Shown here in pieces: positions 3,538 through 41,781 of a DNA stretch of 64,000 nucleotides; position 1 is the stretch's first letter; every line of letters begins with the position of its first letter. Source of the DNA: Shigella phage Tf. A program made the position numbers and the translations under genes. The DNA is taken from the sequence record OR980947; one strand, 5' to 3'. The notes below the pieces were generated by a model, which saw only the letters and a list, made by a program, of their open reading frames with translations, was not told the origin of the DNA and ran no database searches.

Positions 3538-3984
3538 ATGGCTATGTATCAGCAATATTCCCCTAAAGACGTTGTATGTAGCTGGAATGGTATTGCCATT
3601 GAAGGCTTTGCCCCAGACTCATTCTTGCGTCTACAGAGAACATCACCACTTATCACACCAGTTGTAGGTGCAGGTGGTCAAGTTGCTCTGACAAGAAATG
3701 CAGACAAGACAGGTACTATTGAGATTGAGCTAATGCAGACTTCTCTCTCTAACCAGATGCTTTCTGCAATTCAAGCTAAACAAGACAATATGGAACTTGA
3801 AGAAGATATCTCTTCTAACTTCGTAATCTACGACCCATCAGGCTCTGTTCTGGCAACTGGTATTAATGCTTGGTTGCAGGAATTACCACAGATTGAACTT
3901 GGTCGTGACCAGAACTCTAAAACTTGGATTTTTGGTTGTGAGAAGTTAGACTACACTTCTACAATTCCAGCGTCAAGTGTTTAA
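3538..3984 (+). CDS. putative tail tube protein
   Basis: 148 aa ORF between sheath-sized gene and chaperone/tape-measure genes; followed by a terminator. Confidence 0.5.
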   Translation: MAMYQQYSPKDVVCSWNGIAIEGFAPDSFLRLQRTSPLITPVVGAGGQVALTRNADKTGTIEIELMQTSLSNQMLSAIQAKQDNMELEEDISSNFVIYDPSGSVLATGINAWLQELPQIELGRDQNSKTWIFGCEKLDYTSTIPASSV

Positions 3985-3995
3985 TAAATCCTATA

Positions 3996-4029
3996 AGGGG
4001 GAGACTTTAAAAGGTCTTCCCCTTTTTTG
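3996..4029 (+). terminator. rho-independent terminator
   Basis: GC hairpin gggggagac...gtcttcccc followed by tttttt. Confidence 0.6.
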
Positions 4030-4057
4030 TTTCTTTTAAAAGTATTAAGGAATCACA

Positions 4058-4456
4058 ATGAAAACAGAATCTAGAGTAATTAATGGTAAGAAAGTAAATA
4101 TCGTTCTGCTTGGGGCGAGAGATGGTATTAAGATGTCTATGAAGTTGGGTAAAATTGTTGTTCCAACCTTTGCACAGATGCTGTCAAGTCTGACTGATAA
4201 AGATAAGAAAGAAGCTCCAATGGTTCCATTTAAAGAACTTGTTGAAGCTTGTTTTGACAGAATTGAAGAAATTAACCTTGAAGAAATGGCTACACTATTA
4301 TTTCAAGGGGCAACTGTTGATGACTTCCCACTTAATATTGATACATACTTCCAAGCAAACTACGGTGAATTTATTGATTACTTAGCATTTGCGCTGGAGG
4401 CAAACTTCGGAAGTTTTTTCGAAGCAAGCATTTTCAAAAGCCTAACTTCTCAGTAA
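4058..4456 (+). CDS. putative tail assembly chaperone
   Basis: 132 aa ORF immediately upstream of tape measure gene. Confidence 0.4.
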   Translation: MKTESRVINGKKVNIVLLGARDGIKMSMKLGKIVVPTFAQMLSSLTDKDKKEAPMVPFKELVEACFDRIEEINLEEMATLLFQGATVDDFPLNIDTYFQANYGEFIDYLAFALEANFGSFFEASIFKSLTSQ

Positions 4457-4458
4457 AC

Positions 4459-4696
4459 ATGGGTAATACTCTACAGACACCACTGACTGATGCTGCTGTA
4501 GAGGCAACCTATGAAGAAGCAGACGAGATGAAATTTGTGCTTGCTATTTATGGTATGGAAGGGTGTAAAGAAACACTTGACCAACTCTTTGCTATGACAT
4601 TCTCTGATTTATTATCATTGAGACAATTTCTTGAAATTCAGAGGTCGTATAAAGAGGAAATTGCTTACAACGAACTTAGAAGAGCAGGAAAATGTA

Positions 4697-4716
<20 letters not shown>
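4459..4716 (+). CDS. putative second tail assembly chaperone-like protein
   Basis: 85 aa ORF between chaperone and tape measure; overlaps tape measure start by about 20 nt. Confidence 0.3.
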
Positions 4717-10060
<5,344 letters not shown>

Positions 10061-23127: not shown

Positions 23128-23640
23128 TCAAATTAGTTTTGCAAACTCTCCGTGGAGTTTAATAGCAGCTTCACAGTAAGCTTTATGGGCTTCTTCAGGC
23201 GTGTCAAACATACCAAGATGATAGTTTTTACCTTGTAAACGTATCATTGCTCGAAACCTTTTATTTATCTTCTGTACACCTTTTGGCAACCCAGATAGGG
23301 ACTTTCTTGACCGATTGCAAGAGTTTTGTGAAGCTGTACAAACCCTTAAATTCAAGTACCTATTGTCCCAACCATCCCCATTCTTATGGTCAACCTGTAA
23401 GGTTTTATCAGGCAGATATCCATCAATATACAAGATAACTAAACGATTTGCTTGGTAACTCCTTCCATCAATCAGCAACTGAACTGACTTGTGTCCATCA
23501 GTATTTGTTCTGTAGTTTCCAGCCCTCTTACCTCCAAATCTAGAGTTAAAATTTGCATTACCTTCTCTAAACTTCCAAGTAAAGACCCCTGTTTCGGGGT
23601 CGTAGTCCAATAGCTCCTTAAGACGAATTTCTGTAATCAT
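23128..23640 (-). CDS. HNH homing endonuclease with AP2-like DNA-binding domain (free-standing)
   Basis: LLDYDPETGVFTW N-terminus, HNH core VDHKNGDGWDNRYLNLRVCTASQN, AP2-like GMFDTPEEAHKAY; probable start at 23640 within tracked ORF ending 23679. Confidence 0.75.
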   Translation of the reverse strand: MITEIRLKELLDYDPETGVFTWKFREGNANFNSRFGGKRAGNYRTNTDGHKSVQLLIDGRSYQANRLVILYIDGYLPDKTLQVDHKNGDGWDNRYLNLRVCTASQNSCNRSRKSLSGLPKGVQKINKRFRAMIRLQGKNYHLGMFDTPEEAHKAYCEAAIKLHGEFAKLI

Positions 23641-23650
23641 TTCAACACCA

Positions 23651-24207
23651 TCAATGTACCTCATACCAGCTCTTACCAACCTTACCTGTGCCAGTTACAA
23701 GCGTCTCACTCTTCAAACCTAAATTCTTAGATGCCTGACCATACATCCAGTCAGTTATGGCTTTAACTTCTTGAGTCATACTTTCTGGGCATTCCCAACT
23801 GTTCTCATCGTGGTATGCCAGCAAAAGTCTAGCACCAATTGCTGGTTTCCGTCCATTTAATTTTGTCAACCCTTCTTCACATGCTCTTCTACAAGCAAGG
23901 TTAATTGCCTCGTTCTGAATCTGACTTTCCGAACCCATGAGCAAATAATTCAACAACTTATGTGGAGATTTACACCACAACCAAGCTCCAGCAACCTTTA
24001 CAAAACCCCCTTTAGAGATTGCAGCAGTCTTACCAAACACCTCTTCAAGAGCCTTTTTAGTTGCTTTGTAGTCAGCTTCCAAGTCATCTAGCAGCTTCTT
24101 AATCTTTGGCAAACGCACAAAGTAAGTCTGTTTAGTTAATGCACCTTCCTGAGTAGTGGCTGCCTTAATAGTTTTAGCAAACTTTTCATCACCTGCACCG
24201 AACAATA
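23651..24207 (-). CDS. DNA polymerase (family A), exon 2
   Basis: Begins with motif B continuation LFGAGDEK (T7 pol FLYGAGDEK) and contains motif C YHDE; in-frame stop immediately upstream. Confidence 0.8.
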
Positions 24208-24518
24208 CATCTGGTCAATACACTCGCAAGGTGTACCAGTTCTCTTATGAACTTCTCCGCATTTCTACGGAGTGTCGGACTATATCACGTAGTAGTAATA
24301 CTACCGTTGCACTTGGGAATGGTCATTAGCTTACCACCCTACTCTACTCAGTTCATACATTAAGTATGCTTTTCGATAGTCTCTGAACGTTTCTCTGTTA
24401 GGAATCTCTATAGTTATGTTATTTGCTTTAGGAGTCCTAACAGAGACTTCGCTGCTGATTACCATATCTTTACAGACTTAGGCTTCCAGCAATTCACAAC
24501 GTTTTACATGCGCCACTG
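24208..24518 (-). ncRNA. group I self-splicing intron (ORF-less) in DNA polymerase gene
   Basis: Conserved group I elements on the minus-strand RNA: P gaattgctggaa, Q aatcagcagc, R gttcagagacta, S gatatagtcc; 5' splice after U, terminal G at 3' end; joining exons gives IYALLFGAGDEK. Confidence 0.75.
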
Positions 24519-26694
24519 ACGCATAGATACCATTCTTAGCCTTCTTGCGGCCTTTACTAATCTCATGAAGAAGATTCTCATCCTGAGTAGCTCGACAAGT
24601 CAAGATGTCCTGCTCATCATTCAAGCTAAAGTAAATACTGTTCAGTGTATGTGCATCAGTCCCTGAATAGACAACGTACAGGTCATTCTCAGAGTCATAG
24701 CGCAGGTACTTATCAATCTCTGGGTTGAGGTACTCATCAAAATGTTTACAGTAATAACGTCCATCTTCTTGACGAATAAACTCAATCTCTTCTTTACCTT
24801 GCGTTACCGCTTTGGTGAACTCTTTATCACCCATAAAGTTACAAAGTAGAACTAACTGGGCTGAGTTCATATCAACAGAGACTACGTTGGTTCCCTCTTC
24901 ACAAATCCACACCTCCCTCATAGGTGCTCCATAGACAGCAGCACCAGACGGTACGTTTACAATACCATATTGTGTCATTCGTCCAGTTGAAGTACCAAAC
25001 ACCATTGCACCAGCACTAAGGCGACCATCAGGACGAATCTGGTTCAACCAACCTTTTTCACCATCCTTTGAGTTCTCAATAGTTCTGCGTCGGTGCATCA
25101 AAGTATAGTACTTAGCAATCTTCTGTCCAAGCTCACCTTCAATCGTATCATAAGAAGACTCAGTAAGTTTTGGTGAAGTACGGATTAAGCAAGGTTCAAG
25201 CAAATCTGTGTACTTCTTCACAGACCAGTTATGCTCAATGTACTGTACACCTTCATGTTCAACATAGCTCAAACCACACCGCTCAACCATTTCCTGCCAC
25301 TTAGGATGTTTTGTAATCATCTTTTTATTGTCTTTGAAACGACAAACTTTGACAGGGCGACCGTCTGAGTCTTTCTTGTAGTTCCAGTCATCTGGAATCC
25401 AACCAACTGATTTCAAGTAGTCTTTAACAACTGCTACCTGAGTCATACGAGAAACTTCAAAATCAATTGGTGTATATGGTGCATCAATCAAACCTGTGTA
25501 GCGACTTGACTCAAGTTCAAAGTGGTTAACAACGTGACTGTTATAGTACTTCACAGTTTTAACTGTTTTTACTGGCTTCCAGTCTTTGCATTTCTTACCA
25601 ATCTTTGCATTCAACTCATTGCAAATTGCACGAGCATCCTTCATTGCTACAAAGCCTTCCTTGTACTCTTCACCAGTTACAGAGTTGGTTGGTGTATAGC
25701 AATTTCTCTTTTCAATGTTAAAAATCTTTGTAGTTGGCTTACCAAATGGCTTGATTTCATATGTCTGCATCTCACCGTTACGTACCTGCTGACGATACTT
25801 TGTCTTAGGGTACTTGGTAATTCTTTTCAGTCCATCTGCATGACCAAATGTTTCAACATACTCATTCCAAGCTTTTGCAAACTCTTCTCCAGTGACTTTA
25901 CCTTTGGTCTTAATAGTTGGAGGAAGATGTGGTTCAACTTCTGAAGCAAGCTCATTAGTCAACTTGTCAAGTTCCTTTACATGGAACTCCATAAGTTCTT
26001 TATCAGCTTTCCAACCATTGATAGCCTGTTGACTCATCCAGAAAGATGTTTCTTTAGCTCGCATGTAGGTTTCATAAGTGTCTATGCCACACTTCTTAAG
26101 CTTGAGATACTCATTATCAAGTGCCCGTTTAGTTTTGGCGTTAATACGGATATCTTCTACAACACGAGTGAAGATTTCTGCATTCCACACACCCCAATGC
26201 TCAATCTCTGGTTTACGAACACCAACACGAGCACCCCATGCAGCCAAACCATGAGCACCTTTATAACCCTTTGGAGTTGGTCTATCCATCCACTGAACAC
26301 GAGACTGGATAAGAGAGTCCTGAAAGAAATTACTCCACGGTTTACACTTTGGGTTATCAAAGTTCCATAAATCAGGTGCAATGTGATTGAAAACCCACCA
26401 GTCATAACCGAGACCGTTATGGATGCAAAGACGTTTTGCCTTTAACGCAAATTCAACGCCTTCACGCAAACCACCTTTAATGTACTTGGTATACTTGTGA
26501 CCGAGGATAGGCTCATCTGTAAAGACCCATACAGGCGGCTCTTCATCGTCAGATTTATAGTCTGCGAAAGCCATTACGTGCACTTTAGTGAACTCAAGGA
26601 GTAAACCATCAGTTTCTGTATCACCAACCAAATGTAAGTTTTTAAAATCTACGTTTTCCATTTCTACTCCCTCTAAATCATTAACCTCATACAT
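24519..26694 (-). CDS. DNA polymerase (family A), exon 1 with 3'-5' exonuclease domain
   Basis: Exo I motif GDTETDG; pol motif A VSVDMNSAQL; motif B start RKKAKNGIYA; tracked ORF runs 13 codons into the intron before a stop; alternative start at 26661 with gaggga RBS. Confidence 0.8.
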
Positions 26695-41039: not shown

Positions 41040-41781
41040 TAACAAGCTCTATAGCTCATCTAAAACGTGCCTAAACAGGGAAACTCTACAGATGTAGACA
41101 ATCCTGTGCTAAATGATGTACGATGTAAGAAACTATACAACATAGGAGTATTACATGCCAAATTATCATGTTACTGAGGACGGAAGGGTCTTTAGGAAAA
41201 ATGGTGTAGAACTTACGCAGTGGAAATCCAACACTGGTTATATGAAAGTAAGGTTTTATGGAAGGAAGAATCGTGACATGTATGTCCATAGGTTAGTTGC
41301 TGAAAAGTATGTACCTAACCCTAACAATCTTCCAATTGTAAAACACAAAGATGATAACAAACTGAACAACCATGCTTCTAACTTAGAATGGGGAACTCAT
41401 TCTGAGAATGTTAAAGAAGGCTATGAGAATGGTTGCTACAAGTTTTGTAAGCGTTCATATGCTGTGAAGGCTACACATAAAGTGACAAAAGAAGTTATTG
41501 TTGCTAAGTCAATACGAGAGTTATCCAATATACTCGGATATAATCGCAAGACTATCTCTTCAATATTGAAGGGTGTAAAAGAACATAATAACTTTGAACA
41601 TGAATTTGAATACATCTAAATGCCGAACGACTAACCGTGATGAATGTAGCGGTGTAGGGTCAAGCGACTCGAAATGGTACGCTACTTAGAAATAAGTAGA
41701 AGATATAGTCTGGACTTACTGGCGACAGTAAGCAGCTTGAATAAAGCGGGGTAAGCTTAGCGAACTTACCTGAACAACAAG
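41040..41781 (+). mobile_element. group I intron in nrdD carrying an HNH homing endonuclease ORF
   Basis: P4 pairing cagggaaa / caatcctgtg upstream of the ORF; R-like cgaacgactaac and S-like agatatagtct downstream; 5' splice after U, 3' terminal G; joined exons read ISPMG-CRAFLSPYHNEYGEEFYVGRANIGAASLNLP. Confidence 0.7.
41155..41619 (+). CDS. HNH homing endonuclease (intron-encoded)
   Basis: HNH motif HKDDNKLNNHASNLEWGTHSENV; taggag RBS; located in intron loop. Confidence 0.75.
   Translation: MPNYHVTEDGRVFRKNGVELTQWKSNTGYMKVRFYGRKNRDMYVHRLVAEKYVPNPNNLPIVKHKDDNKLNNHASNLEWGTHSENVKEGYENGCYKFCKRSYAVKATHKVTKEVIVAKSIRELSNILGYNRKTISSILKGVKEHNNFEHEFEYI

Follow-up and report, generated by a model that had tools for sequence, protein, structure and literature searches.

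The family A DNA polymerase gene of Shigella phage Tf (sequence record OR980947; the window, that is, the whole stretch of DNA analysed, has a length of 64,000 nt) is interrupted inside motif B by 311 nt on the minus strand (24518..24208). As judged from sequence comparison and structure modelling, this segment is very probably a splicing-competent group I intron, which carries no endonuclease gene and is likely a deletion derivative of a longer intron. The original prediction had read the split gene in this way from the letters of the DNA; its observation was confirmed and its interpretation was supported. The features of the locus are collected in Table 1.

Table 1. Features of the interrupted polymerase locus in the window, with the evidence or description for each
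Feature	Position	Strand	Evidence or description
DNA polymerase (family A) exon 1	24519..26694	-	ORF list; gap-free spliced product compared with LMP34
Group I intron, 311 nt, putative IA type, without endonuclease ORF	24208..24518	-	RF00028; colinearity with intron-less alleles
DNA polymerase exon 2	23651..24207	-	ORF list; C-terminal part of Pfam DNA_pol_A; T7 alignment
Free-standing HNH_3 + AP2 homing-type endonuclease gene	23128..23679	-	Pfam; overlaps the polymerase stop codon
P1 (7 bp)	24507..24525	-	Exon UAUGCGU (24525-24519) pairs with guide GCGCAUG (24513-24507)
P10 (5 bp)		-	P1 loop CAGUG (24518-24514) can pair with 3′ exon UAUUG (24207-24203)
P3, 5′ strand	24501-24495	-	Covariance model, fold, structure table
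P4	24491-24486 / 24458-24453	-	Covariance model, fold, structure table
P5	24483-24481 / 24463-24461	-
P5a	24477-24474 / 24469-24466	-	GNRA loop GUAA
P6/P6a	24392..24446	-	12-bp stem, 31-nt loop; alignment with phage JH2 and others
P7	24277..24383	-	24383, 24381-24377 / 24282-24277, with bulged A; covariance model, fold, structure table
P7.1 (within P7)	24368-24354	-
P7.2 (within P7)	24339-24315	-
P3, 3′ strand (within P7)	24311-24305	-
P8 (within P7)	24304-24289	-
Peripheral 3′ domain: P9 (GAAA loop), P9.1, P9.2	24217..24272	-	Covariance model, fold, structure table

Splice sites and ligated product

The frame of exon 1 reads ...AAG AAT GGT ATC TAT GCG T, runs on for 13 codons into the intron and ends at TAA 24480-24478 (minus strand), so that the halt of the polymerase frame at 24478 was found where it had been proposed; the ORF in question is 24478..26694 (minus strand), and the next polymerase ORF, 23651..24205 (minus strand), represents the C-terminal part of Pfam DNA_pol_A. 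Exon 1 ends as ...GGTATCTATGCGT, the last U of which (24519) is the 5′ splice-site U; the intron starts with C24518 and finishes with its terminal G at 24208, and exon 2 opens with UA UUG UUC GGU..., by which motif B is completed as Leu-Leu-Phe-Gly-Ala-Gly-Asp-Glu-Lys. The 311-nt extent of the gap, as originally given, proved to be exact on both sides (24518..24208) by colinearity with intron-less alleles.

The predicted ligated exon DNA, ...TATGCGT/TATTGTTC... (with a slash at the splice site), was colinear across the junction with the intron-less gene of Escherichia phage vB_EcoM_LMP34. The length of the ligated coding sequence, 2733 nt, is divisible by three; its product is a polymerase of 910 aa, which was 98.9% identical to the uninterrupted LMP34 polymerase over 904 aa with no gap. 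The junction peptide RKKAKNGIYA/LLFGAGDEK (KNGIYALLFGAGDEK) was aligned without a gap to R518-K536 of T7 gp5 (RDNAKTFIYGFLYGAGDEK), in agreement with the earlier claim that splicing after the U of GCGU and at the terminal G restores a continuous sequence around motif B. When the splice site was shifted by one base, Ala-Val-Leu or Ala-Ser-Leu was obtained at the junction and the U·G pair or the terminal G was lost. The splice-site sequences GCGU/CAGUGGCGCAUG and ...CCAGAUG/UAUUG were the same in all 11 of the 11 intron-containing alleles.

Because the alignment with T7 gp5 was ungapped, the intron could be placed inside motif B, between the first and second bases of the codon that corresponds to T7 F528. 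T7 Y526 and Y530 correspond to F762 and Y766 of Pol I, respectively, which puts the insertion at about Pol I 763/764. For phage family A polymerases, the intron sites given in the literature are 674, 676 and 881 (PMC3428280), and the present site is therefore a different one; it was not described in the searchable literature and represents a further site for phage family A polymerases.

According to the proposed mechanism, the intron would be transcribed within the polymerase pre-mRNA, and the 5′ exon end UAUGCGU would pair with the guide GCGCAUG to form P1, with a U·G wobble at the cleavage site. Free guanosine in P7 would attack after U24519, P10 would hold the 3′ exon UAUUG, and the freed 3′-OH would attack after the terminal G24208. 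Exon ligation would then give GCG-UUA-UUG (Ala-Leu-Leu), an intact motif B and a family A polymerase of 910 aa. Translation of exon 1 for 13 codons into the intron, across the 3′ strand of P1, the 5′ strand of P3 and P4, could interfere with folding in vivo.

Ribozyme sequence and structure

The whole 64-kb window was scanned with all 4227 Rfam families, and the group I intron proposed for the gap 24208..24518 was borne out by this covariance-model search: RF00028 was matched at 24255..24530 (minus strand) with 62.9 bits (gathering score 50; E 1.4e-13) over model positions 1-253, its full length. This was the single above-threshold Rfam match in the window and lies far beyond chance. The core strings quoted earlier were each present once and at the P4 and P7 places assigned to them, namely, for P4, gaattgctggaa (intron position about 24) and aatcagcagc (59), and, for P7, gttcagagacta (intron position 131) and gatatagtcc (233).

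The 7-bp P1, which contains the U·G wobble at the 5′ splice site, was unchanged in 10 of 10 distinct intron alleles. The P3-P5a stretch (24453..24501) includes the stop codon at which the frame of exon 1 ends (24480-24478), and the P5a loop remains GNRA among the variants (GUAA, GAGA and GGAA). P2 was absent from the structure model. In the covariance-model alignment, P7.1 and P7.2 appeared as a 63-nt insertion of two hairpins, both of which were invariant. Hairpins P7.1 and P7.2 mark subgroup IA, the home of the classical phage introns, and the structure model accordingly points to a subgroup IA intron that would be phage IA2-like.

The P3-P8 core including the P3/P7 pseudoknot was present, and all pairs in the explicit model were canonical. 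The minimum free energy (MFE) was -93.3 kcal/mol versus -75.6 ± 5.1 kcal/mol for shuffled sequences (z -3.5), and P3, P4-P5, P6, P7.1, P7.2, P8, P9 and P9.1/9.2 were all contained in the MFE structure. The 82 pairs of the manual model were 99.9% paired over 10 distinct alleles, versus 29-48% for the slid-partner controls. Compensatory U-A/C-G changes were recorded at two pairs (the closing pair of P6 and one in P8), together with three G·U/G-C switches. The mean column identity of the intron alleles was 94%, with almost all variation in the P6a loop; with alleles so similar to one another, covariation is thin (two double changes), and the structural support therefore comes mainly from the Rfam model.

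No intron-encoded homing endonuclease ORF was found within the 311-nt intron by the ORF list and Pfam, and the description of the intron as ORF-less stands. The sole internal ORF (24331..24465, minus strand; 44 aa) lies over P4-P7 of the ribozyme core, has no Pfam match and is not kept in the other intron forms; it is labelled 'hypothetical protein' in several GenBank relatives and, on this sequence evidence, is almost certainly spurious.

Alternatives to splicing

Two polymerase coding sequences are given in database records, Mushroom carries the GenBank label 'DNA polymerase subunit', and a TTG codon lies 2 nt past the 3′ splice site, all of which would suit a split polymerase, with the gap retained and exons 1 and 2 translated apart and assembled as two subunits. 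Such an arrangement is highly improbable, since the break falls inside the O-helix/motif B, between the residues that correspond to T7 G527 and F528, exon 2 has neither a Shine-Dalgarno sequence before the TTG nor a credible start codon, sister phages make one chain with 98.9% identity, and the gap is occupied by a complete and highly conserved ribozyme. The original reading as an intron instead of two subunits is upheld by the gap-free match of the ligated exons to intron-less polymerases in both DNA and protein, together with the U·G pair, the terminal G and P10.

That the ribozyme is a dead relic which no longer splices, the phage using another polymerase or read-through, is scarcely credible: the core is invariant across alleles whereas neighbouring synonymous positions in the exons show up to 30% variation, the stem changes are compensated, and the intron carriers are viable, isolated lytic phages. 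An intein was rejected because the frame of exon 1 ends within the gap, after 13 codons, and because the length of 311 nt is not divisible by 3. Frame, length and carrier viability spoke against translational bypass and a pseudogene, and both were rejected.

A second intron in nrdD

The nrdD gene (anaerobic ribonucleotide reductase) is also split in the window, by a group I intron of 742 nt (41040..41781, plus strand) with an ORF (41155..41619) for an HNH_3 + NUMOD1 endonuclease. Its Rfam score was 36.9 bits (41552..41732), which is low because the ORF splits the core. With the splice sites set by hand at …ATGGGT/TAAC… and …AACAAG/TGTAGAGC, the product reads SPMG/CRAFL and is contiguous with solved NrdD structures. 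In an earlier paper, nrdD was described only as 'interrupted by a homing endonuclease' (PMC4837284).

Intron forms among Felixounaviruses

The window belongs to Felixounavirus, and its polymerase region was 97% identical to those of Salmonella phages GEC_vB_NS7 and Mushroom. An intron was present at the same site in about 96 of the 260 GenBank phage records matching the polymerase region, and it occurred in three forms with a common insertion site and a common ribozyme. The minimal form (about 45 records) has about 268 nt and a short P6 hairpin; the longest (about 41 records) has 780-806 nt and holds, in the loop of P6a, an ORF of 160 aa for an endonuclease VII-type protein; the 311-nt form of the window is the rarest (about 10 of the 96). 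The 160-aa ORF of the ~800-nt form was matched by Pfam Endonuclease_7 with 70.5 bits and is preceded by AAGGAG. The ORF-bearing introns of JH2, EC6, FSL SP-010, VpaE1 and further Felixounaviruses share the site and the splice-site sequences with the intron of the window, and their ribozymes were 97-99% identical to it outside the P6a loop; whereas these relatives hold the 160-aa Endonuclease_7 ORF in P6a, the window's intron is without about 490 nt and has kept the 3′ end of the ORF.

The proteins of JH2, EC6 and FSL SP-010 were labelled 'intron-encoded' in a phylogeny by Fang et al. in 2018, within the DHHRN family (PMC6083498). This label was the sole mention found of the Felixounavirus polymerase intron, for which no dedicated paper was found; the ORF-bearing relatives were already known as 'intron-encoded' at that time, and the intron of the window belongs to this known kind. 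According to the Felix O1 genome paper there are no introns, and the Felix O1 type strain indeed has none. Matches to the intron DNA in Staphylococcus, Erwinia and Bacillus phages covered 45-70 nt of the conserved core and were rejected as homologous insertions.

Loss or gain of the endonuclease ORF

The P6a loop of the 311-nt form reads ...CUCCUAA/AGCAAAUAACAUAACUAUAGAGAU.... (with the slash between its left and right parts). The left part is the stretch that lies just 5′ of the ribosome-binding site in JH2 and VpaE1, and the right part is the ORF end (…CTA AGC AAA TAA/TGA, here with alternative stop codons) followed by the downstream loop of the same two phages. The last three codons of the ORF, through AGC AAA TAA, are kept in the 311-nt loop, and the segment of 490 nt that is missing has CTAA at each end. 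In VpaE1 the intron ORF has a 22-nt deletion with a frameshift after residue ~71, and the predicted product has 101 aa and no catalytic domain.

The 311-nt form would be a deletion derivative of the ~800-nt form, with its end-points in the CTAA microhomology. Loss of the ORF, rather than gain, is considered probable on the basis of the short remnant and parsimony, and the ORF-less state of the 311-nt intron is probably secondary. The opposite order, in which the 311-nt form is the older and the endonuclease ORF entered its P6a loop later, would accord with the documented invasion of existing introns by endonuclease genes (PMC3984707) and with the existence of the smaller, ORF-less form of 268 nt. 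It is nevertheless rather unlikely, given that the last three codons of the ORF and the sequence 5′ of its ribosome-binding site are found in the 311-nt loop, that a junction in a CTAA repeat is a deletion signature, that a frameshifted intermediate exists in VpaE1, and that, of the three forms, the one with 311 nt is the least common. Deletion from the ~800-nt form is thus the preferred reading; the 268-nt form could be ancestral to both other forms.

Exon haplotypes and spread of the intron

The exon junction TATGCGT/TATTG was found in 11 of 11 intron-containing alleles; at position -1, C was found in 22 of 24 intron-less alleles (GCAC, GCCC or TGTC), and all differences were synonymous. Two loci (L019 and L020, position 3998/3999) are intron-less and yet have the 5′ exon end GCGT, which may mean that an intron was lost precisely or that these sites were pre-adapted.

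At distances above 400 nt upstream of the insertion site, the polymerase was 95-100% identical across the genus. From -400 to +540 (about 23670..24920, minus strand) lies a divergence hot spot with several haplotypes that differ by 15-30%, which fits repeated endonuclease-driven exchange. The hot-spot exons of the window were 94-97% identical to those of intron-less phages, 76-83% to those of ORF-bearing phages and 70-80% to those of the 268-nt carriers; unlike these exons, the intron of the window was 97-99% identical to the introns of ORF-bearing phages. Between Mushroom and the window, the intron was 100% identical, and two nearby exon bins were 86-87% identical. As the ribozyme is near-invariant and the exons are up to 30% apart, intron and exons therefore have separate histories, and the sequences suggest that either the intron moved or its flanks were exchanged. 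A co-conversion tract from ORF-bearing donors was sought around the intron site, and no clean tract was found there; the first 90 exon-2 bases of the window were 97% identical to the intron-less L016 and 81-87% identical to donor-type alleles.

Alone, the intron would be inherited vertically; its spread would still be possible by recombination, or in trans via the endonuclease of a co-infecting phage. That the 311-nt intron is still mobile in trans, through the endonuclease VII-type enzyme of its relatives or through the adjacent HNH-AP2 enzyme, is conceivable but doubtful; spread in trans is a possibility because the intron is 100% identical amid a 13-14% exon difference and stands in an intron-less exon haplotype.

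The neighbouring HNH-AP2 gene

In 35 related loci, the HNH slot was either empty or filled by one of four or more divergent alleles, with 40-100% identity, in every combination with the intron state. The window-type HNH-AP2 allele (>90% identity) adjoins intron-less polymerase genes in three of these loci (L002, L007 and L010), so that the endonuclease gene was not found to travel with the intron.

The intron and the HNH gene share an operon and are no more than about 530 nt apart, the 311-nt intron occurs in different exon backgrounds, and collaborative homing is an established concept (reviewed in PMC3984707); by it, the HNH-AP2 enzyme would mobilise the ORF-less intron by cleaving, at the insertion site, polymerase alleles that lack it. 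This role is very unlikely because the enzyme would attack the genomes of L002, L007 and L010, which carry the same HNH allele and would be self-targets; in addition, the contents of the HNH slot are independent of the intron state, and the relatives' intron has its own cognate endonuclease. From these sequence comparisons, the HNH-AP2 gene is probably a neighbour and not part of the mobility system of the intron.

Implications for annotation and homing

In dozens of Felix O1-like genomes, the locus is annotated as two polymerase genes, as a 'polymerase subunit' or as a hypothetical protein, and several of the mis-annotated phages are candidates for therapy or biocontrol. The correct gene model would be one spliced polymerase of 910 aa. 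All stages in the life cycle of a homing endonuclease are represented at one site in one genus: by empty sites, by an endonuclease gene in intact, frameshifted and deleted states, and by a minimal intron. With this allele series at a single site, trans-mobilisation of the ORF-less intron is therefore testable with existing isolates; if mobility in trans is true, the genus, with these alleles in culturable coliphages, would be a natural system well suited to tests of the full homing cycle and of trans or collaborative homing. The current understanding of group I introns is left unchanged. The intron is a classical, ordinary phage element.

Comparison with known introns

At least 120 unrelated group I introns were collected by a core-motif scan of IMG/VR. 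Among a sample of 120 other phage group I introns, only four (L104, L055, L071 and L137) contained the P9.1 sequence AGUUCAUAAGAGAAC of the window's intron. L104 and L008 are one and the same contig, from a Felixounavirus; L055, L071 and L137 share core similarity with the intron of the window, and the host gene of L137 is nrdB. Among the at least 120 introns, L149 alone was in a polymerase gene, at a position that differs from that of the window. The family A polymerase gene of L149, an unrelated phage contig, contains two group I introns, 3943..4192 (56.2 bits) and 4551..4825 (70.8 bits), both above the Rfam threshold, of which the first likewise interrupts motif B, at a distance of a few codons on the upstream side of the window's site.

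The T7-like phages YpP-G and Jarilo resemble the window in having an intron inside motif B of a family A polymerase, and outside the genus the closest relatives of the JH2 ORF were the endonucleases in T7-like polymerase introns (51-54% identity). The introns of YpP-G and Jarilo, for which the splice sites were set by hand, share the 3′ strand of P7 and the identical P9.1 with the intron of the window, whereas their insertion lies 11 nt upstream (RDNAKTF/IYGFLYG) and the 5′ halves of the ribozymes could not be aligned. Nothing was detected in Rfam scans of these ORF-containing introns, because the ORF splits the core.

The classical IA2 polymerase introns were reportedly treated by Bonocora and Shub in 2004. 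In them the ORF, where present, likewise lies in P6a; they encode HNH nicking enzymes, whereas the relatives of the window's intron encode an endonuclease VII-type enzyme. The classical introns are inserted at site 674 in SPO1, SP82, Bastille and Pf-WMP3, at 676 in phiL7 and at 881 in PhiI and W31 (E. coli Pol I numbering; PMC3428280). An ORF-less intron beside a free-standing endonuclease gene is likewise found in the psbA intron of cyanophage S-PM2 with F-CphI, a case of collaborative homing, and a defunct intron near such a gene in T4, where mobE acts in trans-homing of the defunct I-TevIII (PMC3984707, PMC2790892). Unlike in the S-PM2 and T4 pairs, the HNH gene of the window also occurs with intron-less alleles, and a cognate intron-encoded enzyme is present in the relatives.
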